NCBI RefSeq assembly: GCF_011745625.1
Contig: NW_027191464.1
Coordinates: 62,001 to 126,000, forward strand
Reading direction: 5' to 3'
Source of the DNA: Cladosporium halotolerans
Lineage: Eukaryota
Length of the DNA stretch: 64,000 nt
Shown here piece after piece: positions 7,643 through 39,515 of this stretch. How positions within the stretch are numbered: the stretch's first letter is position 1; the number at the start of each line of letters is the position of its first letter. The position numbers and the translations under genes were made by a program. A model generated the notes under the pieces. That model ran no database searches and had not been told where the DNA came from. It worked only from the letters and a program-made list of their open reading frames with translations.

Positions 7643-8616
7643 GCTGGTGTGTGGTCTAGTTGCCTGGAATTGACTGCGATACTCTCCTGTCGCAACTTCC
7701 TAAACGGGAATTGAGTGAGGTTGAACGTTTACCAGCAGCCTGCTGCTGAGCTAGCATGTCCAGGCCGTGATCTGGGCGAGCTGCGGTTTGGTGGAGCAGC
7801 TGTGGAGAGGATACGCGGAAGGTGACCCGAGGCCGCTCGGCAAGCGCCAACGCCGTTGTCGGCTGGGACGTGGCGGGTCGACTCCAACGGCGGAAGTGCC
7901 CTCTCGACGGTATCGGCTATTGCGGTCGATGATGGCCATGGGGATGCGTCCCGGTTGTGAGTCGTCACCCCATCCGGTGGTAGGCGGACAAGACTCAGGT
8001 GGACCCTTCTCGGATGGAGGTGTCATGGAGCCGGGAAACACCAGACGACATCAATTGATTGAAAATTGATTAATCGATCAATCAACCTTTGCCTCTCGCA
8101 ATTGCCGACCTCGCTGGCCCGAGCCCCCTGCTTTTTGAACGGCAGTCCAGGTCATCACTCTGCTAGTTCCCGTTTCATCAACACGCCGTCGAGTCGACAG
8201 CCCGCTTCCATCAGATCCCATCGATCCCATCAAATTCCACCGTTTCCTCCCATCAGTCCGGCTTCTGCAAGGTACACGCTCACGCGCGCCAAACAAGCTC
8301 CCGATTACACACCCAGATTGTCGTCATCCTGGCTTCCACACTGCCCCGCTTTCGCTCCCTCGTCCGCTGTAGCCGATCTCTCTCGGCTGCCGTCAAGCTG
8401 GCTCCACGGGAACGCCTGAGTCTCATCTCGAGACATTTCAATACCAATGCTCACGTTCCGCTGAACACACCTTTCTCCATCGAGCGCAACAGCAGTCCCG
8501 GCGACGACATTGAGCATTCTTCCCTACCTAAAGCACAGAGTCGCCAATTCGGTACCCAAACAACCCCACCAAAGAAAGAAGAGCCCGCCCAAGAAGAGAA
8601 GAAAGAGCCAGTCAAG

Positions 8617-9768
8617 ATGTCTAGCCAGCCCCCTCACCCTACTGTGCTCATCCCGGGCCCGATCGAGTACGACGATGAGGTTCTCAAGGCCATGAGCCAC
8701 TACAGCGAGCCGCACACCGCCGTGCCCTTCGTCAAGGTCTTCGGCGAGACCCTCACCATGCTCCGCCAGCTCTTCCAGACCACCAACCCCAACAGCCAGC
8801 CTTTCGTTATCAACGGTTCTGGAACTCTTGGATGGGACCAGGTCGCTGCCAACCTGGCTGAGAGGGGCGATGACGTCCTCGTTCTTCACACGGGCTACTT
8901 CGCCGACAGCTTCGCAGACTGCTTCGAGACTTATGGCGTCAAGGCAACTCAGCTGAAGGCCCCCATTGGCGACCGTCCTCAATTGGACGAGGTTGAGAAG
9001 GCTCTCAAGGAGAAGGAATACAAGATCCTGACCGTCACGCACACCGACACCAGCACTGGCGTGCTGTCCGAGATCAAGGCCCTCAGCGAGCTCGTGCACC
9101 GCGTGTCGCCCAACACACTCGTGGTCGTCGACGGCGTCTGCTCCGTTGCCTGCGAGGAGATCCGCTTCGACGACTGGGGCATCGACGTCGTCCTCACCGC
9201 GACCCAGAAGGCCATCGGCGTGCCCGCCGGCCTCAGCATCCTGATGGCCAGCGAGCGCGCCATCGAGCGCTTCCGCGCGCGCTCCACGCCGCCGCCCAGC
9301 TACTACGGCAGCTGGAAGAACTGGCTGCCCGTCATGCAGAACTACGAGGCCAAGAAGCCGTCCTACTTCGCCACGCCGTCGCCCCAGCTCATCCACGCCC
9401 TGCACACGTCGCTCACGCAGATCCTCAGCCGGCCGTTGGAGGAGCGCTTCAGGCTGCACAAGGAGGCTAGCCAGAAGGTGAAGAAGGCCGTTGCTGAGCT
9501 CGGCCTCAAGCAGCTGCCCACAAAGCCCGAGAACGAGGCTAACGGCATGACCGCTATCTACTTGCCCGAGGGTCTGACGCCGCCCGAGATCCTGCCCAAG
9601 CTGATCGCAAAGGGCATCATCTTCGCCGGTGGTCTTCACAAGGAGATCGCTACCAAGTACATCCGTTTCGGCCACATGGGCGTCTCCGTCACCGACCCCA
9701 AGAGGGATGACCTGGACAAGGCCATCAAGGCTCTCAAGGAGGGTCTGGCTGAGGTCTCGCAGAAGTAG
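8617..9768 (+). CDS. AGX1: Alanine:glyoxylate aminotransferase (class V PLP); probable non-AUG N-terminal extension from 8341/8398 (see findings)
   Basis: LIPGPIE, GSGTLGWD, VVVDGVCSV, TATQKAIGVPAGL (PLP Lys), YFATP, IRFGHMG; intronless with strong codon bias. Confidence 0.92.
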   Translation: MSSQPPHPTVLIPGPIEYDDEVLKAMSHYSEPHTAVPFVKVFGETLTMLRQLFQTTNPNSQPFVINGSGTLGWDQVAANLAERGDDVLVLHTGYFADSFADCFETYGVKATQLKAPIGDRPQLDEVEKALKEKEYKILTVTHTDTSTGVLSEIKALSELVHRVSPNTLVVVDGVCSVACEEIRFDDWGIDVVLTATQKAIGVPAGLSILMASERAIERFRARSTPPPSYYGSWKNWLPVMQNYEAKKPSYFATPSPQLIHALHTSLTQILSRPLEERFRLHKEASQKVKKAVAELGLKQLPTKPENEANGMTAIYLPEGLTPPEILPKLIAKGIIFAGGLHKEIATKYIRFGHMGVSVTDPKRDDLDKAIKALKEGLAEVSQK

Positions 9769-16006: not shown

Positions 16007-17740
16007 CTAGTAAGTATACCTAAAGTCCCTGTTCTCTCTATCAGTGACATCAGCAGAATCCAGCTCCGCCAAAACCGCCCCATCAACGACCGGCTTTCCA
16101 TACACACGGTCCCGCCGCCCGTTCTCATACACGCAATACGCGTAGTGCAGCGCCCCCGACGCCGCCATGATCGCGAACGCGCAGATCATCGCGCCGATTC
16201 CGAGCGGGTAGTGCGGCGCCTGGGAGCGCAGGAAGAACTGCGGGCCGATGATGTTCCCGATCGCTGGACGGTATCTCGTGTCAGTCTATCAACTCGTCCG
16301 TAGTGGATTGGGAGACGCACCGTAGACGACCGCAATCGACACGCCCATGAAGCTCTTTTTCGTCCCGCCCGCCATGTTCGACGAGCACAGGCTCAGCATG
16401 AAAATCCACGGCACGTTGTAGAAGCCCATGATGTAGACGCCCGCGAGCGACGCCGCGCGCTGGCTCTCGACGTCCAGAGCGTGCACCATGATCGCGCCCG
16501 CCATGCCGACCAGCGCCGAGAGCACCCAGAAGACGCAGCGCACGTTGGGCACCTTGAGCGAGATGGCGGACAGCAGGGCGGCGGCGAGCATGGCGACGGC
16601 GGCTTGGGGCGTCGCCATGAGGACGGTTTTGGTGCGGCTGAAGCCGTAGCCGGAGATGATGAGGGGGTTGAAGTTGGTTATGCCCGCGTTGGCGATGGCG
16701 TAGCCCAGCGCGTTGGCCCAGATCAGGTAGGCGTTGGGGTCGCGGAGGGTTTCGTGGATTTGGGCGATTTTGAAGGTCTGGGAGGGGGGGAAGGTGTTAG
16801 TTAGTTGACTGGGGAGTGGGGGGCTTGGTTGGGATGGACTTTTTGGGTTTCGACGCCGGTTTGGTTGGATGCTAGGCGGATCACGGCGAGGTGCTTCTCG
16901 CGTTTGCTGAAGAACCAGGCTTTGGATGGCGAGTCGGGCAGGCCGAAGAAGACCAGGATGCCGGTGAGGATTGTGACCGCTCCGTAGATGAGGAAGATGT
17001 ACTAAGCGATCGTCAATCAGAAATCACTTAAGATGGCCTTTGGCAAGGAGGAATCACCTTCCATGTCGATAGTGAACCACCAATCTTCCCAATCGCGTAG
17101 GACAAGATTCCACCAAACACACCAGCAAACGTGTTATACCAAAAAGCCGTCCTCAGCGGCTGTTCCTCTCGTCGATACCACGCCGAGTTGACCAAGATCA
17201 TGCAGGGCAAAACGGCGGCCTCAAAGACACCCAAGAAGAATCTCACAGTAGCCAGGCCAGCAAAGTTGTGGCAGACGGCCATGAGGCACAGCGCCACGCC
17301 CCATAGAGACAGGCAGACGCCGATGTACTTCCCGACCGGCACTTTGGTCATCAGCCAGATGTTCGGGAACTCCATGGCCAGGTAGCCGAAGTAGAAGATG
17401 CTGCCCAGCCAGCTGTAGTCTTGCCCTTTCAGGTTGGTGTCTTCTTGGATACCGAAGACTGCGGCGTAGCCTAGGGCGTTCTATTGGGACGGTTAGCAAT
17501 GATTGTGATGAGTCTTCTGCTCTTTTTGAGTTGACGTACCTTGTCCAGAAATGCCAGTGTCATTGCCAGAACGATCAGAGGCATGACGACGAGGTCAGTC
17601 TTGAGAAGAATCCGCTTGGCTTCCGCCTTCGTGATTTCATGCGTTACCCCAAGCACATCAGACTCCTCAACGGCGCTTGACGTGACCTGTTCGACATCCT
17701 TTGCAATTGTTGCATCGTCAAGACTCTTTTCTGAAGGCAT
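16007..17740 (-). CDS. MFS transporter, Dal5/allantoate (anion:cation symporter) family
   Basis: KTDLVVMP...LAFLDK, YSWLGSIFYFGYL, VRFFLGVFEA, WYRREEQPLR, NMAGGTKK, GNIIGPQFF, C-terminal DVTDRENRDFRY; about 5 exons. Confidence 0.92.
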
Positions 17741-17950
17741 GTTGAGCGGTGGAAAAGGGCAGCGGTCGAAGGGGTTGCAGGCTCAAGTTCTCGAGGCCCA
17801 GTATTCGATATGGAGGGCTGAACATTCCGAGGTATGTCATGTTCCCGGCCTCCTGTATATATGTAGAGCCATTGGTCTGCGACTGTTGCGTCTTGGGTCC
17901 TATCGCGCGTAGCACGCAATTGATAGGTGTTCGGTCTCCGGCGAGCAATC

Positions 17951-17965
17951 TTCGGTGGAGACCGA
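17951..17965. promoter_or_regulatory. Zn2Cys6 site TTCGG-N6-CCGA (Ppr1/UaY-type) upstream of the permease
   Basis: TTCGGTGGAGACCGA about 210 bp upstream of the permease ATG; 13 of 15 bases match the site at 19582-19596. Confidence 0.6.
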
Positions 17966-18243
17966 CGCTAGCGACCTCCCGCAACCTTGCCTCGTGGCTC
18001 TTCGGGATACTTGGTCGATAGGGAGCTCGTTGCTCGAGATGAGTAAAGATTGCGAGAGAATGCTGGAATGAAGCGAGTGGTCTAACGATGGGCAACTCGA
18101 TAGCTTATCATGTACAGGGTGTTAGCCTTTCAATCGCTCACTTTGTCCCAAATCACACGAATTTCGACGGCTGGAGTTCGCGCTTGTACATAGTAATTCT
18201 TTTTTTACATCAAAGAAAGTTGGTTCATGAATGATCAATTATA

Positions 18244-19403
18244 TCAAGAGTGCAACTGAAGATGAGCCAAGTTACGAGGCGCCTCCACCTCAGCCAGAAT
18301 CTCCTCGCGCGATCTCTCCACGTCCTTCCGAACAAAGTCAGTATAGATCTCTCGGATCTTCGCAGTGATGGCGCCACATTGTCCATCGCCAATCGCACGT
18401 CCGTCAACTTCCACCACATGAATCTGGGATGGAAATGTGCCGGTACAGAACGCCTCATCGGCACCGTAGACTTCCGTCAGGCTAAAGTCAAGCTCACGGA
18501 CGGGGATGCCGTACGACCGGCACGCGTCGATGGTCTTTTGCCGCGTGATGCCTTGCATCTGGTTGTCCTTCGTAGGAGCCCAGACCTCATCTCCACGCAC
18601 GATGAAGAAGTTGACCGAGTTGCATGTCTTGACGAAACCTCTCTGGTCCAGCATCAGCGCCTCGTCGACCTGCATGACGTTTGCGCTGATGCAAGCCTGC
18701 ACGTCCGTGGCCTTGGAGATGTGGTTCCACTGCTCGTCTTTGACGTCTGGCGAACCGCGACGGACCCAGGTCGTCGCGAGACGGAGGCCTCGTGTCTTGA
18801 CCGAGGGGTTGACGGCTTTGATCTCCGGGATGATCACGATCAGTGGCAGGCCCACGTTGACGTTGGGGTTCTGGTAGGGCGTTGATTTGAGCCCTCGGCT
18901 GACGACCAGGCGGATGTGGACGTGTGGCTCGTCGTTCATGTCGTTGACGTCGAGTGTCTGGTGGATGAGGCCCAGAAGTCCGCCTTTCGTGATGCCAAGA
19001 TCCATGAACATTGCCTTCGCTGCTTGGAATAGACGGTTGATGTGCTCTCGGGCGAACTGCACGCGCCCTTTGTTTGCTCTGATACCTTCCTTGAGGTTGG
19101 TCAGTAAACTGAGTTGGAATTGATGCGAGTGCTAATTGATACTGCTTACCCAGAGGCCGTCTCCAATAAGGAAGTTGGAGTCGAAGACAGAGACGACGGC
19201 TTGTGCTCGAGGCACCAAGTTGAAACAGCCCGTCACACCGTCGCGCATGCCAATCTAGATCCATCACATCAGTAAGTGATACTCAATGTCTGTTCACGAG
19301 GACTTACGACGATAGAGTCATTCTTGACGTTCGGAATGACATCGTGTGTCGAGCTCTTGCTAGGCTCATGGCTCTGTTTTTCGGGGACAGATGACTTTGT
19401 CAT
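18244..19403 (-). CDS. Fold-type IV PLP enzyme (BCAT/D-amino-acid aminotransferase-like), atypical active-site residues, about 348 aa
   Basis: Exons 19403-19308, 19254-19150, 19089-18244 (all phase 0). Motifs AVVSVFDSNFLIGDGLWEGIR, EHINRLF, IRLVVSRG, DEALMLD, MQGITR, ADEAFCTGT, VDGRAIGDG. Confidence 0.88.
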
Positions 19404-19581
19404 GTTGGATCAGGCCGGAGTAAGTCGCACAGCAGTGGCGTTACAGAAGACCGAAGCGCGATAAGAAACATCTTGATGCGGAATGCCTATATACATATTT
19501 CCACCATTCGCGATGGAGCAGAAACGAGTCGCCCCGAATGGCCGCCAGGGATGGGGCCCCAACTTCCAGTGTGGAGCCAAA

Positions 19582-19596
19582 TTCGGTCGCGACCGA
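19582..19596. promoter_or_regulatory. Palindromic Zn2Cys6 site TTCGG-N6-CCGA in the divergent enzyme/TF promoter
   Basis: TCGGTCGCGACCGA (19583-19596) is a perfect 14-bp palindrome lying between ATG 19403(-) and ATG 19741(+). Confidence 0.6.
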
Positions 19597-19740
19597 GGAA
19601 AGCTCGGTGGCCAGCGAGCACACCATCTTATCATTCCAACAATCATCAACCTACTGTGCCACCGGCAAGCCGGACTTCGCGGCATATCAGACGCTTGACT
19701 AGCTGCCAAATCGTATGCACCATCTGCTATCTTCATCGCC

Positions 19741-21994
19741 ATGGAATCGGCAATCGCCTCGGTACCATCCGTGGTGAAAGCGTGCGGTAGATGTCAGGCG
19801 CGGAAAGTCAAGGTAGGTTCGCAACAAGGCGTGAACACAACATGAGCTAGGCATCGAGACGAGTTTACCAGCGGCTGATAATACTGTGTCGTCGCTAGTG
19901 CGACCTGACATTACCTCGATGTACTCCATGCGTCAAGCACAATGAGGCCTGCAACATCTCAGATCGCGTGGCGTATTCTTACACCGTCGTCGCGAGGCTC
20001 GAGGCCGAGGTGAAAGACTTGCGTGCTCAACTAGATAATGCAACAATAAGCAACAATGTCACTCTGCAGAACCAGGATCATCTCGTAAGACCGCCGATTT
20101 TCTGCAAACATTCCATGCTGACCATAGTGCGCTTGCTGTACAAGGCCCAGGCAAGTGACATTCAAGCCGAAGAAATAGGGGTTCTGGCCATTGGAGGACG
20201 CGGCCAGCAGGCTGACGGGACTTATGGTATTGCTCGTCGATCGCTGTGTTCAGTTTCACGTTTGCTGACAGGAATTTACCGGCAGTGGGGAGTGCTGCGG
20301 GATCAAGCTTCACACGAATGTTCTTGAGACAGCTCGCGTTTGATGGTGAATGGCTGTCAGAACCCTCAAATGATTGCCTGGAACCTTGCCCAACCAAAAG
20401 TCTAGCCTCACTTCCGCCTTATGCCACAGCTCTTTATCTGTTACGGCAGTACATAGCCAAGACGCATGTGTGGTGGCCCTTACTCCATCTACCTACGCTA
20501 CGGCAGGATTTGAAGGATGTTTATCAGAATCCAAGAAAATGCACCGACGCCCAGAAGTTCACCGTTTTCGCAATTCTCGCACTTTCCAGTGCTGAATCAC
20601 AAGGCGAGTCAGTTTACGGGCAGCTCCTGGATCTCAACGAGCCGTCAGCCTACTTCCGGACGAGTCTGCGATATATGGATTCGCTTTATGACCATCCAAA
20701 GCATGTGTTTCGAGTGCAAGCGCTGCTTCTCCTTGAAATCTGGATGCTGGACTCTAAGGACAGCGGAGATTGCAACGACCTTTGGCATCTGTCGCGCTAC
20801 GCCATGTCAGCTGCCATCCAAGCCGGGCTACATCGCCACAACGCCAGCTGGAAGTTCTCCACCGAAGATTTGGAAATCAGAAATAGGACCTGGTGGTGCA
20901 CTTATAACCTCGAAAGGTAAGCACGACGATTCTGGCAGATCATCCGGGCCTTATTGACTGAAGCGATCGCCCACAGGCAAGTCGCAGTGTTGACTGGAAG
21001 GGTCTTGTCTGTCAGAGATCACGCAGTACATGCTGAACTACCAAGAAAACTCGCTCTTGATAATTTAGACTCTCAAGAGGCCAAAGCTGCAACGTCGTAC
21101 TTCAATCACGACGTCACTCCGTTCCGACTCATGACCAGACTGCGTCAGATCTCCGGACGAATCCTCGAGTCGGTCTATGTAGCACGCAGGGCAGACGGCA
21201 CCACTTATGACACATCATTCCAGCAAATCTGCACAATGTCAGATGAAATCCGGACTCTGCTCATGGCCTGGAAGATCGACTTCCGTGAAGCGCGCCTCGG
21301 ACAGTGTAAGGAATCTTCCGTCCTGAACATGGAGTACTGCAACCTACAGCTCCTGCTCAATCGACCAAATCCTACATTTCTGCTTCCAACGCAAGCCATG
21401 CTGGATGTCTGTTCCGAAAACGTGTCGGAAGCCATACGCGAATGGTCGAATGTCTCCTCACATTTTGGGATTGGTGCCATCTGCCGAGGCTATCGGCAAT
21501 ACCACAGTCTTCTTTTAGTCGGTCTTGCTGGGCTTTATCACGACTGGTATGTTGAGTACTAAGCCCTGACCCCCAATTTCGACTGCTAACCCTTCAGGCA
21601 CGCGCAAACGATCGGCGGGGACGCGGGCAATGGAGCTCCGTCAATGCTCTGTCGCCATCAATCAGACACTCAGACCTGCCTGGATCTGCTCCGGGAAGCC
21701 GCACGTCAAATGGAAATCCCTGGGATTGCAAGATACGCCACACTCTTCGCGGCTATTCGAGCAAGGGTCTATGCGACTAGACCAGATGCAAACGACCAAG
21801 TAACAGCGATGGATGTGGCGTCAACTTACGGCGAGTACTCGGGGATGGGCAATGGAAATCTCGGCGGGCTGCCGCAACATCAGGATCTAGAGGCGTATCG
21901 CGACCATCTGTCCAGCTTTTTCGACTACGACGTCCTTGCTAAAGACGAGGTCCTCTCCGCATGGTATGATGCCATCATGAGAGACCTCGATTGA
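19741..21994 (+). CDS. Zn2Cys6 transcription factor with fungal-specific TF domain (Ppr1/UaY-like)
   Basis: ACGRCQARKVK|CDLTLPRCTPCVKHNEAC split by an intron, coiled-coil VARLEAEV, AEEIGVLAIGG...GSAAGSSF, AGLHR...RNRTWWCTYNLERQVAVLTGR; multi-exon. Confidence 0.9.
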
Positions 21995-26800: not shown

Positions 26801-27031
26801 CTGTGATCGGCAGTCTCGAGGTAGCAACGATAATTCACAGCAGTCTGGGAGAAGGCACGGCCCTGAAAATCTCCAAAAGTGTCTCTGAACGGTGCTGCAT
26901 GATGCAATGGCAAAAGATCGGATAAACCCATCTACCAAGCTGGACTGCTCGCCGTGTGTATAAAGAGTCCACAACTGCCGATCAAGCAATGCCTCCTGCT
27001 TGCTAAATATCTTGTCAATCTTGACTTCAGT

Positions 27032-28331
27032 ATGTATAAGCAGCTCTTTGCGGCGCTAAGCCTTCCAGCCTTGGTCCTCTCGGCACCGGGTCACAGCCCT
27101 CCCAGCTACGACTCTGACGGTTGCACCAAGACCTGCATCGTCGACTCAAGCGCCAACGACACTTCCTATGCAATTGAAGATGCCTTTCATGAGTGTGGTC
27201 ATGAAACCGGCGAGAACAGGGGCAAGGTCATCTTCAAGAAAGACGAGACTTACAACGTCCGCCGTGTCATGAACACGACTGGCTTGACCAACGTTGACGT
27301 CGATATTCACGGCACTCTTCTTTGGGACACCAACATTGATTACTGGCTCAACCACTCCCTGCCCATCGGCTTCCAGAACCAATCCACTGCTTGGATCTTT
27401 GGTGGCGAGAACGTTCACTGGAACGGTTTCGGCTATGGCACTCTTGACGGCAACGGTCAGGTGTGGTACGACTTCATCAATGGCACAAACAACTACCCGG
27501 GCCGCCCGCACCAGATCTCCTTTGAAGGCATGAAGGACAGTATCATCGAGAAAACACGCTTCGTCCAGTCTCAGATGTGGACCATGACAGTGATCCATTC
27601 CGAAAATGTTCTGTTGGAAGACATGTATGTCAACAGCACCGACTCGAAGCAGGAAGTTGGCTTTCTCTTCTCTCAACACGGATGGCGCGGACGTGATCTA
27701 CTCCAACAACATCACCTTCAGGAACTGGGTTGTGGATTGTGGTGATGACAACATCTCCACCAAGGCGAACGCTACGAACATCCTCATCGAGAACCAAGAC
27801 TGGTACACCGGTCTTGGCTTCGCCATGGGCAGTATTGGTCAGTACGAGGGCGAGTTTGAGTACGTCGAGAACGTCACCGTCCGTAACGTCACTGTCCACG
27901 ACCGCATGAGATATGCCGCCTACTTCAAGACTTGGACTGGTGTCAGCCGCGGCTATCCCCCGAACGGCGGTGGCGGCGGCCTCGGCTACGCTGCCAACAT
28001 CACCATGTCGGACTTCAAGCTGGACAACACTTCTGGCATCTTCGCCATCACCCAGTGCACCAGCTACAACAGCGCCACTGGCGAGTGCAACACTAGCGAG
28101 TTCAACATCCACGACATCACCCTCGAGAACTGGTCCGGTACCTCTACCAGCAACGTCCTTGCTGAGCTGCAGTGCAGTGGTGCCAGCCCGTGCTATGGCA
28201 TCAAGTACGATAACGTGTCCGTTGAGATTCCGAGCAACAACACGATGGCTAGCCACTACCTCTGTGGAAATGTCACCAACCCTATTGGGTTTGAGTGCAC
28301 TGATGGGCTTTGGGAGGAGAACAACAGGTGA
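27032..28331 (+). pseudogene. Secreted GH28 (RgxB/exo-rhamnogalacturonase-like) interrupted by a frameshift at about 27661 (pseudogene or sequence error)
   Basis: Signal peptide MYKQLFAALSLPALVLSAP; GTLDGNGQVWY and GRP in one frame; NTDG, DD, KTW..YPPNGGGGGLG in the next frame. Confidence 0.75.
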
Positions 28332-28896
28332 AATAGTCAGATATGTAGTTCTAGAATTTGATGAAGGTGAGATGCCTTGAGCTCAAGCATCTTCACTATT
28401 GACGACAAGTGATCATTCCATCGACTTATCTATAATCTTCCGCAAGCACAGTCCCGATCGTTGTTCACCTCGATGGGGTTTGATACGTCGACCGACCTCG
28501 ATTTGAGAGCCTGAGTGTACGCAGTCTTGATGTCTCCACGGCAACATGGCCTTACCATACATCTATCGTGCATTCGAGTGTATCATCGCCGGAGCTTCCT
28601 GAAAACCTTGTCAGGCAAGAACTTGGGTTACTTGGTGGATGATCAGTACTCTGATCCCCACAACACTACTTGGAGAAGGCACCCGACTCAGATTAAAGGC
28701 TGTAGAACAACCCTCGATGTAGCTTACAATTAAGTTGTGAAGTCGTTTCGTTATCGTGCCATACGTAAAGCCCTTCAGATACGCCAGTTTGGCATCAATA
28801 CCGTTGCGACAACGCATTCGGATGAAGTGTGGCACGCGGGCCGATTAATTGTCCCTAGACGAAAAAAGAAAAGGACAGAAAACACAATGACAAAAA

Positions 28897-29015
28897 ACAT
28901 ACAACAGGCGGGATTCCCAGATGGTCACCCACTCTAGTACTAGTCGCCCGGTTCAGTGCTTATGTATGGCAGAGCGGACGGGATGCCCAGTTTTCACTGA
29001 CCTGTGGTCGTATGC
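28897..29015 (-). rRNA. Dispersed 5S rRNA gene
   Basis: Reverse complement reads GCATACGACCACAGG...CCCGTCCGCTCTGCC...AGTACTAGAGTGGGTGACCATCTGGGAATCC...TGTTGTATGT (119 nt), followed by a T-run Pol III terminator; TCATAT at about -25. Confidence 0.95.
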
Positions 29016-29241
29016 ATCTGCTGGAGGTATGCAACAAAATATGAAGTAAATATCGCAGCCCATACTGCTGCTATTGCAAATTTCAGGTGGGTAACTAAGT
29101 CTCTAAGTTACTAGGTAGGTCGTAGACCCTCAGTGTTGAGGGCACCTGACCTACTTCGAGCAAAGGGTCAATTGGCTCAACAGCTTCCTGAGCTACGTTT
29201 TAACGATGTTTGCTGTGTCCGCTCTGGTGTTTGATCACTGC

Positions 29242-30949
29242 TCAAGCAACCTCCACGCGGGAGACGTGTGCGTCCTTCGGCTTATCCCGATCATCTTCAT
29301 AATCACCATCCTCGACCACCTTTGAGGCGTAGTCAACTTCAGGCCTCACGAATCCAAAAAGTTGATCCATCTGGTCCATACGCACGCCCTTGGTCTCGTG
29401 GATGAAGAACCAAGCATAGATCGAAGCGAGGATGAGCATGCTGGCGAAGAAGATGTACACGCCGTATCCCATACCTAAATGTGTGTCAGCAAGGTCACCA
29501 TCACTTCAGAAATCGTTTGGAACGTACCCGAGAACATTGAAGGCAACGCCTTGGTCACAACAAAAGTCCAGAGCCAGACGCTCATACCAGCCCAAGGCCC
29601 GGAGATGCTGCGGAGAGTGCTGGGGAAGATCTCAGCCGAGATGATCCAGGGCAATCCATTGGCGCCGAAAGACCAGGCTGCACCGAAGACCATGATCGCT
29701 GCTGTGGCTGCACGGCCGCCTGCAATAGTACTCGCGCTCTGGGGCTCTCCCACTTGAGGACTGCCGACCGCAATGTAGCCTGCCAGGTAGTACTGACAGA
29801 CAGCGCAAGTCAGTGAAGAGACAATCCAGGGCATCTTACGGCCAAAAGTGTCAATAAAGAAGGTGAAGAAGATGACCGAGCCGCCGGCTTTGATGATACC
29901 ATAGATACCAGTCCAGAACGTAACATCGTCAAGTCCAATTGATCTGAAGATGGTCGGCGAGTAATAATTGATTGCCGCTGCGCCACTCCAGCCTTGCCAC
30001 ATGAACATAACGAACACAAGAAGGAAGCGGTTGCGCATGCCCTTCATGCAAGACTCGCGCAGTGCACCTTTGATGAACGACCCGAAAGAAGGGCGCGCAC
30101 CACCAGTCACAGCCCGCTCACCGTCGATCTGAGATTGTATGTAGGCGACGTCTTGCGCAATGTAGGTATGATCCGCTGGAAGATTTCTGTAATAGCTGAG
30201 GACGTTGTAGGCATGGTCCTCCCGTCCGCGTTTCAACAGCCACGTCGGTGACTCGCGAAGGAAGGGTATGCCAAGAGCGAGGAGACCGGCTGGGATGAGC
30301 TGCACGCCCATGGGGATGCGCCAAGCTACTGATTTACTGGCGTCAATGTTGTGCACGATACCATAGTTGATCCAGAAGCCGATAACCGCGCCAATCTGGT
30401 AGGACGATTCAAAGAAGCCGGTGCATCGTCCGCGGATAGCTGGAGGAGAGATCTCCGCAATGTATATGGGGCAAACGGCTGCAATCCCGCCCACACCAAG
30501 CCCAGTAAGAAGTCGACCAGAGTACATCAGTCCGAGTTGGTCGGTAGCTACCGTGCAAAGGACAGCGCCAATGGCAAATATGGCGTCTGAGATGATGACC
30601 GTCCATTTCCGTCCAAGCTGCTCAAGAGAGGCAAACATGAAAAGTGCACCGAAGAATCCTCCAGCAGAATCTGGTGGGAAGTGAGTTTACTGAGACGCTG
30701 CTAATGAAGGTCAGACTCACAAATGCTGGTGAGGTTGCTGTTGACGGCATCTTGCTCGGATGAACTCATCACGTCCAGCCCGAAGTCACGTTTGAAAGAA
30801 GCCTGCGTGATAGTGGTCCCAATGAAGGCGCTGTCGTAGCCGTATGCCATCACACCCATCGAAATGATGAGTGCAGAGGCATACACCTTCCAGTTGTATA
30901 CCTCTGGCGGTGTTGGCCGGTCTTCTGGCGCACGCGCAAAACCCGTCAT
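29242..30949 (-). CDS. MFS sugar-porter family transporter, quinate-permease-like
   Basis: EDRPTPPEVYNWKVY, YGYDSAFIGTTI, GRLLTGLGVG, PIYIAEISPPAIRGR, ESPTWL, AINYYSP, PWIISAEIFP, HETKG; 3 exons. Confidence 0.92.
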
Positions 30950-31646
30950 GATGTGAGAGGTTCCGAGGACCCGAACGATACAGTATAGGCAAAGAGACGA
31001 AAACGATCAGGTCTAGACGTACACTTCAGCAGCAGATAACTCGAGCTGGTCGTCGGGCTCTGCCTGGAAGACGCCGTGATCGGCCATTGGCGCTAACAGA
31101 CACGCGATAACCCATGGGGCACCGCGGGAATGACTTCAACCTTAGCATCTAGGCTTGAGGACGGACATTGACCGAGGATGTTACACAGCGTCGCAACATC
31201 GCTGCAAAGATGCACCGCCCAGTACCTACTCGAACCAGGCGCATGACTCGAGCTTCATGGGGCTCCGGACTTGGCGGGGTCGATCTCCAGACGGAGCGCA
31301 TGGCTAAACCGCGGCCGCATACAGATCCAATTGCCGATGCATTGCAGCTTCGTGATTTCGGCGACCTACGGAGATTCCTGAGAGGCCGGCCCTCCCGATA
31401 GTCCTGTTTGACGGTTCATGTCGCGATGTCGGAGACGTCGTTGAACATTTCTTGGTGGAGTATGCAGGCATACCCACAAGCAACGAGGCCGGCAGATACC
31501 ACCCGGACCTAAAGACTCACATGTAATGCTCTATTCTGCTCATTTCTAACCTGGGATTGCTCTCACAGTCAACTCACCTTGAACCGACAGGCACATCGAC
31601 GTCTCATTCGACCACTGCGCAGAAGTCTTGCCTGAACCTCGAAAAC

Positions 31647-32702
31647 ATGCCGTCGAACGAGTCTGGCATTACCACCGGCGCTGCAGCATCCGCCATGCCA
31701 TCACTTCAGGGCATTCACGTTCCCTCTTTGACTTTCTTCAGCGAATCACCTAAGCAAGAGATCGACTGGCCGACGCAAACCAAACACTTACAGTTCCTCA
31801 TTTCCTCTGGCATCCATGGCGTAGTCCTCGCAGGCACGAACGGCGAGGCCATCACACTTAGTCGATCCGAGAAAGCAGATCTGGTTCGCGCCACGAGAAA
31901 AACAGCAAACGATCTGGGCAAGAATAGCTTCCCCATTAGCCTGGGCACCAGTGGAACGAGCACCCGAGACGTGATTGACGACTGCGTTACCGCGAAGGAG
32001 GCAGGGGCCGACTTTGCGCTCGTCCTCGTACCCAGCTTTTTCCACTTTGCCATGACCAAGGATGCCATCTGCGACTTCTTCGAGGAGGTTGCTGACGCCA
32101 GCCCGGTGCCTGTTGTAATCTACAACTTCCCTGGCGTGGCTGCGGGATTGAATGTTGATTCGACAATGCTTGACCGCTTGGCAAAGCACGAGAACATCGT
32201 CGGTGTCAAGGTAGGTCAATCTGGAGAAGACCAGCATCCGCTAAACGAGAAGCTGACAAGATCGATCTAGCTCACCTGCGGTGGCATTGCGAAAGTCACT
32301 CGCCTTTCAGCGACTTACCCGACATCCAAATTCTGCGCTCTTGCTGGGCAAAGCGACTGGCTCATTCCAGCGCTCTCGGTCGGCGGGACAGGTTGCATTA
32401 CAGGAGTTGGAAATCTCTACCCTCGCTCATGTGTAGAGGTCTACAATCTGTATCTTGCAGGGAAGCTGGAGGCCGCGCAAAAGCTGCAGTACACGTTGGC
32501 GATATCGGAACTAGGATTCGGTGATGGCGGTATCAACGGGACGAAGTGGGTCGTCGGAGAGCTCCTGAACTATCCTCAGGGATCAAGAGACTGCCGGAGG
32601 CCATACCCGAAGTTTGCCAGCAAAGACAAGCAAGACTGGATCTTGCAGCAGGTAAGGGCGCTTGAGGCGGATGAAGCAAGGCTGCTCAAGCTCTCTAAAT
32701 AG
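31647..32702 (+). CDS. DHDPS/NAL-family class I aldolase (HOGA/2-keto-3-deoxy sugar-acid aldolase-like)
   Basis: GIHVPSLTFF, GTNGEA, YNFPGVAAG, NIVGVK|LTCGGIAKV (Schiff-base Lys); intron 32211-32270. Confidence 0.9.
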
Positions 32703-37472: not shown

Positions 37473-38441
37473 GGCGAAGTGTATGTGCTTTGTTTTGGAA
37501 CCAGAGTATTCGTATAGGTCTAACGTGCTTTTGGTAACAGATCAGAGTGCTCGCGTGAGTGGTATGTCAAGGACAAAGGAAGTGGATCAGGTTGATTGAG
37601 CAGTGTGCAAGGGTATTATGAGTAGAAGAAATGGAAAGGCAGAATACTTCTGGAAGTGTTGTAGTGCGTATATACTTAGACGACCCCGGGCACGGAGCAA
37701 TGGCGGTCCCAGCGGAAGACAGCCATCTGTCGCAAGGCGAACAGATCCAGGATCGCTTCGCCGTTACGAAGTTCGCTCAAGTCCGATCCCAGCGGAAGTC
37801 AGCCATCCGAAAATCAGCCGTTTGAAAAACGGTTCCGATTGGCCAAGCGGTGATTGAAAAGCGGAGACCGACAGATCTGGTATTCGCGGGCGAGATTCAG
37901 ACGACGACATCGTCCGCGATGAAACCTTCGTTGTCAGCGACGCCACGTCAATGCTGCTGCGCGGCGATTATCGAACATCGCTGACATGCAGTGCAAAGAG
38001 GCGTCGCGAGTAGCTGCTGCCGTTACACTCAACCTCTACTCCCATTTGCTGACGAAGATGTACAAGCAATGACACGAGTGCTCTCTGCAGTTGTCAGCAT
38101 GTCTTTGCCGCCATCTACCCATTTCACGCGCATGAGAAACAGAAAGTGCAGGCCGAGCTGTAGGGCTGGTTGGTCGTTGCCGCAGATGGGCCAGGGTGAT
38201 ACCAAGAGACCCCTGCACTCGTGAGGGGAATGTTAACGTGAACTGCAGAAGTGGTTTGATCACGGCGTTTGGACACAACCAGCAACTCGGATGATCGGTC
38301 TAACACGCACGAAGACACGGCATAAATACCAGCTCCTGGAGGCCAGGAACAGTGTTCTTCTTCACCATCCAACAACGCCAAACTCATTCTCAATCAGATC
38401 TTATTTCGCAATTCAGTTGAATCGCAACATTTCCATTCACA

Positions 38442-39515
38442 ATGGCCCCAACTATCCGCAAATACAAGGCCGCAGCCGTCAACGCCGAGCCTGGCTGGCT
38501 TGATCTCGAGCTTTCTGTCGAAAAGACGATCCATTGGATCAATGAGGCTGGCAAGAATGGCTGCAAGCTCGTTGCTTTCCCCGAACTCTGGATCCCCGGC
38601 TACCCGTACTGGATGTGGCGTGTCAACTACCAGGAGAGTCTTCCTTTGTTGAAGAAATACCGCGAGAACAGCCTTCCCTCCGACTCACCTCAAATGCACC
38701 GCATTCGTGCTGCGGCCAGGGAGATCTCCATTTTTGTTTCTCTTGGCTACTCTGAGGTTGATCTCAACAGCCTGTACACCACTCAGGTCATGATCGACCC
38801 GACCGGCAACATCATTAACCATCGTCGCAAGATCCGAGCCACTCACGTCGAGCGTCTTGTCTTCGGCGACGGTACCGGTGACACCACCAGCATGGTGATG
38901 GACACGGAGATCGGCCGCATCGGTCACTTGAACTGCTGGGAGAACATGAACCCTTTCCTGAAATCCTACGCCGTTTCTCTCGGTGAGCAGGTCCACATTG
39001 CTGCCTGGCCGCTGTACCCGCACGCTTCCACGCTCAAGTATCCTGACCCCTACACCAACATCAGCGACGCAAACTCAGACATTGTGACTCCGGCCTACGC
39101 CATCGAGACCGGCTCTTTCACACTCGCGCCTTTCCAGATGATCTCCGCGGCCGGCGTGGCTCTCCAGACTCCTCCGGGCAAGACTCCAGAAGACAACGAG
39201 ATCTACAACGGCAACACTCGCATCTACGGCCCGGATGGTCAGAGCCTGATCGAGAAGCCGACCGAAGACTTCGAAGGCCTGGTGTATGTGGACATCGACC
39301 TTGATGAGACTCACCTCAGCAAGGCCCTCAACGATTTCGGCGGACACTACATGCGTCCTGACTTGCTTCGCCTCGTGGTTGACACTGACCGCAAGAGTGC
39401 GGTTAGCAAGGTCAATGGCTCTGGCTCACATGAGGTCCAGAGGACGATCGATCGCGTTGGCCTCAGTAAGCCGTTTAGCGAGCTTGACTTTGGCAAGGAT
39501 AGCGAGCAGCAGTAG
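38442..39515 (+). CDS. Cyanide hydratase (nitrilase superfamily)
   Basis: [55 protein letters not shown] (E-K-C triad, with CWEN typical of cyanide hydratases), GHYMRPDL; intronless. Confidence 0.92.

Follow-up and report, generated by a model that had tools for sequence, protein, structure and literature searches.

What joins a membrane carrier, an aminotransferase-like protein without the catalytic lysine and a transcription factor, whose genes lie side by side in Cladosporium halotolerans? The three genes are found in a stretch of 64,000 nucleotides (nt) of NCBI RefSeq assembly GCF_011745625.1 (contig NW_027191464.1, positions 62,001 to 126,000 of the forward strand), which we call the window and whose first letter is position 1 in all coordinates below. 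An original prediction, made from the letters of the sequence, had taken them for a nitrogen-catabolic regulon of a Dal5-type permease, an atypical fold-IV pyridoxal phosphate (PLP) enzyme and a Ppr1/UaY-like factor with a shared operator. The observation behind that prediction is confirmed here, and its interpretation is supported in part. We propose, with a probability of about 0.55, that these three genes make up, in filamentous fungi, an inducible unit specific to one pathway. The strongest result of the analysis is the conservation, in orthologous promoters, of an inverted CGG repeat with a strict six-base spacer. Because the genes are linked across distant fungi and have this conserved control site in common, they probably form one switchable unit.

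The three genes and their transcripts

The gene models are frame translations that were then checked against assembled contigs of public runs from two studies, X1 and X3 belonging to one and X6 to the other.

16007-17740, minus strand: permease gene, 5 exons, 499 amino acids; major facilitator superfamily (MFS), anion:cation symporter (ACS) type
16007-16263, 16321-16777, 16840-17001, 17058-17480, 17540-17740, minus strand: permease exons; all four introns joined in one spliced X3 contig
18244-19403, minus strand: enzyme gene, lysine-less fold-IV aminotransferase-like, 3 exons, 348 amino acids
18244-19089, 19150-19254, 19308-19403, minus strand: enzyme exons; both introns joined in X1 and X3
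19741-21994, plus strand: Zn2Cys6 transcription factor gene, 6 exons, 645 amino acids
19741-19812, 19899-20084, 20145-20226, 20286-20916, 20977-21546, 21598-21994, plus strand: factor exons; a 2578-nt spliced X6 contig spans all five introns

None of the three reading frames contains an internal stop, and contigs of X1, X3 and X6 join across all 11 of the 11 predicted introns at GT..AG borders. The runs carry no record as RNA; we read their contigs as spliced transcripts because eleven GT..AG segments of 51-86 bases are skipped. A contig of run X2 reads uninterrupted through the enzyme introns, as DNA would. Transcribed sequence of the permease extends to at least 17877 (X3), the enzyme contig extends to 19501, and the factor contig begins at 19649. 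Enzyme and factor genes are divergent and lie 337 bp apart. Both the three adjacent genes and the promoter common to the divergent pair are therefore present as first described. The window comes from a filamentous ascomycete, and the best named homologues belong to Nectriaceae, Emericellopsis, Stachybotrys and Verticillium.

Within the permease gene (16260-17383), X1 and X3 contigs also contain a joint across which 1122 bases are missing; its ends are the non-canonical TC..GG, and long loose ends occur at 16238 and 17411. It is probably the mark of a paralogous or chimeric contig and not a splice form.

A conserved inverted repeat in the promoters

Two operator-like sites and an imperfect copy lie upstream of the three genes.

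17951-17965, no strand: operator-like site 1, TTCGGTGGAGACCGA, TCGG-N6-CCGA; 210 bp upstream of the permease ATG and 278 bp beyond the enzyme stop
19582-19596, no strand: operator-like site 2, TTCGGTCGCGACCGA, in the divergent promoter; the enzyme ATG is 178 bp away and the factor ATG 144 bp
19604-19617, no strand: operator copy with a single mismatch, TCGGTGGCCAGCGA, 8 bp past site 2

The near-identical 15-mers first noticed in the two promoters are thus where they had been placed, at 17951 and 19582. Within the window, TCGG-N6-CCGA has 3 matches against 1.35 expected, an unremarkable number that 13 of 100 shuffles reach. The shared 15-mer pattern has 2 matches against 0.02 expected, although the pattern was chosen after the sites had been seen. 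In the intergenic DNA of the window the extended consensus is matched only by sites 1 and 2 and the one-mismatch copy at 19604, and the core of that copy, GCTCGGTGG, is also found in three of the metagenome loci described below (L001, L008 and L009). The third TCGG-N6-CCGA, at 29277, was considered as a site of the regulon and rejected; it lies 3' of a sugar-transporter gene and misfits the extended consensus.

Since the count within the window alone proves little, the weight of the site comes from orthologous promoters. Seven promoters of enzyme or permease genes were examined, two in the window and one each from L001, L008, L005, L006 and L009. The inverted CGG-N6-CCG is present in 7/7, once in each window promoter and in L001, L008 and L009, three times in L005 and four times in L006. 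This amounts to 12 sites in 3126 bp of promoter, where 0.56 would be expected from the 20 in 111,699 bp elsewhere (Poisson 1e-12, on a background of mostly coding DNA). The spacer control is independent of the choice of background: in the same seven promoters each spacer of 0-5 or 7-12 bases gives 0-1 site, compared with 12 for a spacer of 6, and no more than 4 are found for everted or direct CGG arrangements. L005 and L009 have no CGG-N6-CCG other than the promoter copies within 13.8 kb and 20.8 kb, respectively. Placed 140-320 bp upstream of the enzyme ATG, the sites share a consensus of about CTCGGT-N4-ACCGAG, with a CGGAC-NN-GTCCG variant in L006. The motif that the original prediction expected in orthologous promoters accordingly recurs there, with strict preference for the six-base spacer.

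Motif scans of the window promoters also returned HGATAR, the nitrogen-derepression site of AreA/NIT2.

17900, 17921, 18016, 18098, 18105 (cluster 17900-18110), no strand: five HGATAR sites, permease promoter
19459, 19628, 19727 (span 19459-19732), no strand: three HGATAR sites, divergent promoter

All four HGATAR sites reported earlier exist, two of them shifted by one base (18105 and 19628), and four more were found. HGATAR occurs at chance level across the window (100 against 101 expected), compared with 8 in the 841 bp of its two promoters, where about 1.3 would be expected. The seven promoters hold 21 in 3102 bp (6.8/kb), roughly 3-fold the 2.06/kb found elsewhere (P 4e-6), an enrichment that promoter composition may explain in part. 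Motifs for CYS3/MetR, Cbf1 and CpcA are absent from the seven promoters (0 matches), and those for CreA and CCAAT show no enrichment in them.

Linkage of the trio across fungi

A scan of metagenome contigs with exon 3 of the enzyme gene returned 80 loci, 16 of them fungal-like (68-91% identity) and 64 bacterial-like (40-53%). Partner genes in the fungal-like loci were sought by tblastn with the factor and permease exons of the window. Two arrangements are those of the window: a factor divergent from the enzyme (L001/L002), and an enzyme followed by a permease on the same strand (L013/L014). In L005 and L006, whose contigs carry no factor, permease and enzyme are divergently oriented. On the 1.15-Mb contig of L009/L010 (68% identity) the order is permease (-), enzyme (+) and factor (-), such that the trio is kept and its order changed. 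Of the 9 distinct loci with a readable flank, 6 have one partner or more next to the enzyme.

Named species give the same picture. In Phialemonium thermophilum, factor, enzyme and permease carry the consecutive tags VTK73DRAFT_803/804/805. Locus tags are adjacent or one apart in Neopestalotiopsis clavispora (g9046/g9048), Cirrosporium novae-zelandiae (000525/000526), Emericellopsis cladophorae (001448/001449) and Ilyonectria robusta (16687/16688); one gene model of Colletotrichum spinosum fuses a factor fragment with the enzyme. In about 23 species of Sordariomycetes, Eurotiomycetes and Xylonomycetes, enzyme and permease homologues lie on contigs of equal size, several of just 45-290 kb. No further neighbour is conserved around the fungal trio in Pfam scans of the window and the fungal loci. 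Synteny of the trio, which the original prediction named as a check, is thus seen, with flexible order and with exceptions (L008, L015, L017 and Aspergillus californicus) that are weighed below. Self-regulation of the factor, claimed as well, fits the shared promoter in the window and in L001/L002 but not L009/L010, where the factor lies downstream and its flank has no site.

A fold-IV protein with an altered active site

The enzyme matches Aminotran_4 (PF01063) with an E of 4e-31 (cut-off 28.5 bits), and its 61 PDB matches at E <= 1e-5 are all class IV proteins; by these comparisons it is a member of the fold-type IV (class IV aminotransferase) superfamily. The best solved relative is PDB 7z79 ("Aminotransferase, class 4"), with E 1.2e-51 over residues 1-254 of exon 3. 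7z79 is an aminotransferase-like protein of Variovorax paradoxus; its PDB title gives no function, and no paper on it was found in the literature searched. The next-best match, 9j32, is a point variant of 7z79 with Lys for Asn at the column of the catalytic lysine. In the window protein this column, which holds the Schiff-base lysine (the Lys of IKSLNYL in the archaeal branched-chain aminotransferases (BCATs) 5mqz and 5e25), is occupied by Asn189 (codon 18724-18726). Thr222 (18625-18627; KTCNS) stands at the column of the Glu that holds the cofactor ring nitrogen in canonical enzymes. The Asn and Thr replacements are present in 9/9 fungal and 14/14 bacterial rows aligned, and both groups keep the phosphate-cup motifs, which are HIR, GITR and CTGT in the window enzyme, together with a lysine four positions past the Asn. 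In 7z79, likewise, Asn occupies the lysine column, and Ser/Thr-Cys is found at that of the glutamate; it differs from the fungal enzyme in being bacterial and in having Arg in place of the Lys that is conserved in fungal and most bacterial proteins four residues after the Asn.

All 17 of the 17 NCBIfam matches, to models of BCATs, D-amino-acid transaminases (D-AAT) and aminodeoxychorismate lyases (ADCL), fall below the curated cut-offs. The best, NF006185, scores 181.9 against 363, ilvE_I 149.9 against 245.55 and the D-amino-acid transaminase model 89.3 against 277.45; the query was exon 3 alone (281 of 348 amino acids), which lowers these scores somewhat, and full-length bacterial relatives fail too (232-242 against 363). 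The fold-IV part of the first description holds, but "PLP enzyme" is doubtful because the Schiff-base lysine and the cofactor glutamate are both replaced and the curated models stay below cut-off. By alignment, the protein lacks both the lysine and the glutamate that mark a canonical fold-IV transaminase or lyase (BCAT, D-AAT, R-amine transaminase or ADCL). Most likely, its ligand is an anion or an adduct of substrate and free cofactor, and the reaction that it catalyses is a yet-undescribed one.

Enzyme identity is 66-83% from Sordariomycetes to a basidiomycete yeast. Sources name some homologues "branched-chain amino acid aminotransferase", and the ESM Atlas returned generic Aminotran_4 clusters alone. 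No function is described for the enzyme family in the literature searched, a body of text in which most subscription journals fall outside coverage, and the Arabidopsis identifiers At5g27410 and At3g05190 gave no match in it. The Verticillium longisporum orthologue (P0006) ends in -SKL, the classical peroxisomal targeting signal, whereas the window protein and the other orthologues read do not.

Relatives coupled to a sulfotransferase

In the bacterial-like loci a Sulfotransfer_5 (PF19798) gene lies 3' of the enzyme gene and often overlaps the enzyme stop. By tblastn the partner is present in 60 of the 64 loci, directly downstream in 57; three of the four loci without it have less than 140 bp of room, and only L078 is truly without it. 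At L078 (10001-10756) the flank is ample (10 kb) and holds serine/threonine kinase genes and no sulfotransferase. The sulfotransferase partner is not covered by any NCBIfam model. The 64 bacterial loci contain no homologue of the fungal permease; MFS genes near some bacterial pairs were considered as its counterparts and rejected as unrelated.

The two domains also occur in one chain. Among longer homologues from an exhaustive search of cluster representatives, 13 of the 14 tested have Sulfotransfer_5 followed by Aminotran_4, and a plant protein with a D-AAT_like as well as a Sulfotransfer_5 domain appears in one report (PMC13725701). Alignment separates three active-site types: Asn/Thr-Cys, in fungal, bacterial and the closest fused forms; His/Glu, in other fused and some stand-alone forms; and the canonical Lys/Glu. 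In a tree of 38 rows, the Asn-type (7z79-like) clade, which includes the fungal enzyme and is marked by the Asn and a T/S-C-N-S motif, comprises 23 rows (100/100). Within it the fungal clade (100/100) is nested in a fused Asn-type clade (13 rows, 99/98) and is sister to the bacterial Asn-type forms. Because of this nesting, the fungal genes probably descend from a fused ancestor whose sulfotransferase part was lost. Neither the window nor the 16 fungal-like loci have a Sulfotransfer_5 match at E <= 0.01, those at E 0.05-0.9 being at chance level; the clear matches in that search belong to the bacterial-like L016, and Pfam scans of the window and the fungal loci gave none.

The His/Glu forms make up a second lysine-less subfamily, with His at the lysine column and the glutamate kept. 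Its members are often fused to Sulfotransfer_5 (P0308, P0324, P0339, P0340, P0356 and P0393), and P0291, P0296, P0314, P0316 and P0346 stand alone. A Lys-to-His change is known in pyridoxamine phosphate (PMP)-dependent sugar dehydratases of another fold.

The permease and the transcription factor

Two exons of the permease gene match MFS_1 (1.4e-18 and 2e-8). For a full-length orthologue, P0121, 9/9 PDB matches are VGLUT2, DgoT or sialin, all distant (E 4e-7 to 7e-5), and for a minority of homologues the source gives the name "allantoate permease" or "transporter C417.10-like". The solved relatives are thus all of the ACS/SLC17 type, in agreement with the organic-anion carrier proposed at first. 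VGLUT2, DgoT and sialin presumably share one Transporter Classification (TC) family, 2.A.1.14, with Dal5, and "Dal5-type" is a plausible description of the permease. DgoT is an importer, and carriers of the Dal5 family import allantoate, ureidosuccinate, dipeptides and related anions. In Fusarium falciforme, a 528-amino-acid model (P0176) combines a proline-racemase domain (PF05544) with a sequence closely paralogous to the permease (74% identical over exon 2), which suggests that a gene for an amino-acid racemase or epimerase lies beside another member of this permease subfamily.

The factor matches Fungal_trans (PF04082; 1.1e-16), its orthologues carry PF00172 and PF04082, and its zinc cluster has the form C-X2-C-X6-C-X6-C-X2-C-X6-C (CGRCQARKVKCDLTLPRCTPCVKHNEAC, residues 15-42). 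On these features it is classed as a Zn2Cys6 (Gal4-type) fungal transcription factor. The DNA-binding domain of an orthologue, P0242, matches Gal4 (3.7e-5) slightly better than Ppr1 (1pyi; 3e-4), so the "Ppr1/UaY-like" label is not supported as sequence kinship. It does hold for the geometry of the site, TCGG-N6-CCGA being the one bound by Ppr1 and UaY. In our proposal the site would be bound by this particular factor.

Other genes in the window and at related loci

The region 26903-32267 holds a two-exon GH28 glycoside hydrolase, a sugar transporter (29478-30686, minus strand) and a gene like the aldolases of the dihydrodipicolinate synthase (DHDPS) family (31527-32267), and looks like a pectin/galacturonate utilisation neighbourhood. 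At L005, a GH28 and an alginate-lyase-like gene lie beside the permease-enzyme pair. The window further contains a class V aminotransferase-like gene (Aminotran_5, 2.5e-22; 8167-9765) and a carbon-nitrogen hydrolase gene (9.9e-39; 38421-39512), neither with an operator-like site near.

A proposed regulon and its alternatives

In the mechanism that we propose, a dimer of the factor would bind the inverted CGG triplets, six bases apart, upstream of the enzyme (140-320 bp) and of the permease (about 210 bp). Under nitrogen limitation, the factor and an AreA-type GATA factor would together switch on importer and enzyme when an inducer is present. The permease, an ACS-type proton/organic-anion importer, would bring in an organic anion, and the cytosolic lysine-less fold-IV protein would bind the imported compound and convert it. 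The anionic group of the compound could sit in the retained phosphate cup, or the compound could form an adduct with free cofactor. Co-induction of the genes, the direction of transport and the use of the compound as a nitrogen source are inferred.

Several observations weigh against such a unit. The partners are incomplete at a number of loci: L001/L002 have no permease in 2.65 kb downstream, L008 has neither partner (its upstream MFS gene is unrelated to the permease), and L015 and L017 have neither permease nor factor in about 1.8 kb downstream. The best factor homologue of Aspergillus californicus is on another contig than enzyme and permease, and the enzyme and permease tags of Talaromyces verruculosus are 27 apart. 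Orthology of the L009 factor is uncertain because identity is just 35-36%; the factor is altogether far less conserved than the enzyme, its best named match being 57% identical. The site itself is missing from the enzyme-to-permease spacer of L013/L014, the L001 and L008 promoters are non-independent (they have a conserved block in common), and the mostly coding background tempers the Poisson value, as composition may temper the HGATAR enrichment. Assembled contigs cannot show co-induction of the trio, and the sulfotransferase link bears on relatives only. Could adjacency and the shared 15-mer then be products of chance, with the genes regulated independently? The unexceptional number of TCGG-N6-CCGA matches within the window and the variable arrangement between species would allow it, but linkage recurs across fungal classes and the N6 site, with its strict spacer, is present in 7/7 promoters, which leaves this explanation barely credible.

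The other alternatives accept a functional connection and differ in what the enzyme or the unit does. An ordinary branched-chain or D-amino-acid transaminase, in a cluster that catabolises an amino acid, is what Pfam Aminotran_4 and the names of homologues would suggest; with Asn and Thr at both key columns in 23/23 rows, NCBIfam scores far under the cut-offs (181.9 against 363 at best) and a separate clade (100/100), we find this very improbable. The loss of both key catalytic residues, the very high sequence conservation and the frequent position beside the factor gene could instead point to a ligand-sensing pseudoenzyme that controls the factor, as Gal3 does with Gal4. The relatives, however, are coupled to a sulfotransferase in 60/64 bacterial loci, with no such regulator, which points to catalysis or substrate handling, and in L005 and L006 the enzyme is beside the permease with no factor near; a pseudoenzyme is thus decidedly improbable. 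Quite improbable, too, is a unit for the synthesis, repair or export of a metabolite, in which the permease would be an exporter or the enzyme would serve damage control. Sequence does not reveal the direction of transport, and a bacterial two-gene module without conserved catabolic neighbours is usual for housekeeping or repair. On the other side, the solved relatives of the permease are anion carriers, the importer DgoT among them, and a dedicated factor with GATA enrichment is the usual pattern of fungal nutrient catabolism, as in the hxn cluster (PMC5746545).

A closer alternative keeps the same regulon and assigns it to sulfur instead of nitrogen nutrition: the unit would import and process a sulfate ester, a sulfonate or a sulfur amino-acid derivative, and the enzyme would perform the step that its relatives perform beside the sulfotransferase. 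Sulfotransfer_5 linkage or fusion is near-universal in the relatives, genes for PMSR, thioredoxin-like DUF255, gamma-glutamyltranspeptidase and Cys/Met PLP enzymes are scattered near some bacterial pairs, and the yeast Dal5-family carriers Yct1, Soa1 and Seo1 move sulfur compounds. We nevertheless consider a sulfur role unlikely: the seven promoters have no CYS3/MetR or Cbf1 motif and are enriched in GATA sites, the fungal cluster has no sulfotransferase, sulfatase or dioxygenase gene, and the bacterial neighbours besides the sulfotransferase are not conserved.

Returning to the inducible three-gene unit, a tentative extension concerns the chemistry. The enzyme might carry out an undescribed non-transamination reaction on an anionic, possibly sulfated amino compound, in a widespread pathway for which bacteria have an adjacent sulfotransferase and plants and other eukaryotes a fused one; Dikarya would have lost the sulfotransferase and tied the enzyme instead to an importer and a dedicated, inducible regulator. 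Our favoured, though speculative, idea is that fungi take up through the permease the kind of anionic amino compound, possibly sulfated, that the sulfotransferase of the relatives makes.

If the proposal is true, the fungal regulon would be the first genetic handle on the substrate of the whole family, because a compound that switches on the promoter is a candidate. A dedicated regulator and a sharply defined, conserved operator would make a practical screen for that compound, and the answer would bear on unannotated plant "BCAT-like" proteins. For fungal biology, the trio would represent one more nutrient-utilisation pathway, probably nitrogen-controlled, in many plant-associated and soil fungi.

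Comparison with known systems

Small fungal clusters in which a permease and an enzyme come with a regulator of their own are of a known kind; what is new here is the content, a family for which the literature searched gives no function. A paper on such a permease-enzyme-factor cluster was not found in that literature, in line with the earlier statement that no described pathway of this composition was known to the author of the original prediction. The individual parts do have counterparts. With the Dal5/ACS (SLC17) carriers of the MFS, the permease has in common the MFS_1 domain and ACS/SLC17 solved relatives. UaY, of the purine regulon of Aspergillus nidulans, and yeast Ppr1 are Zn2Cys6 proteins that recognise inverted CGG triplets six bases apart, the arrangement also found for the trio, where the full TCGG-N6-CCGA is frequent; the binding of UaY was reportedly studied by Suarez et al. 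in 1995. UaY also co-operates with nitrogen control by a GATA factor, as we propose for the factor of the trio. The target genes differ from those of UaY and Ppr1, and the factor, at 645 amino acids, is shorter than either.

In overall architecture, the proposed unit closely resembles the hxn nicotinate cluster of Aspergillus nidulans, in which transporter and enzyme genes with their own pathway-specific factor are co-induced and AreA-dependent (PMC5746545). The hxn regulator is a Cys2His2 protein, the hxn enzymes are unrelated and their substrate is known, whereas the trio has a single enzyme. The module of Sulfotransfer_5 and a lysine-less Aminotran_4 protein has the Asn-type clade in common with the trio, although the fungal enzyme has no sulfotransferase domain or neighbour and in the plant-like fused forms examined the lysine column is occupied by His instead of Asn, with the glutamate retained. 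Unlike the bacterial pair or the eukaryotic fusion, the fungal form is tied to a permease and a transcription factor.

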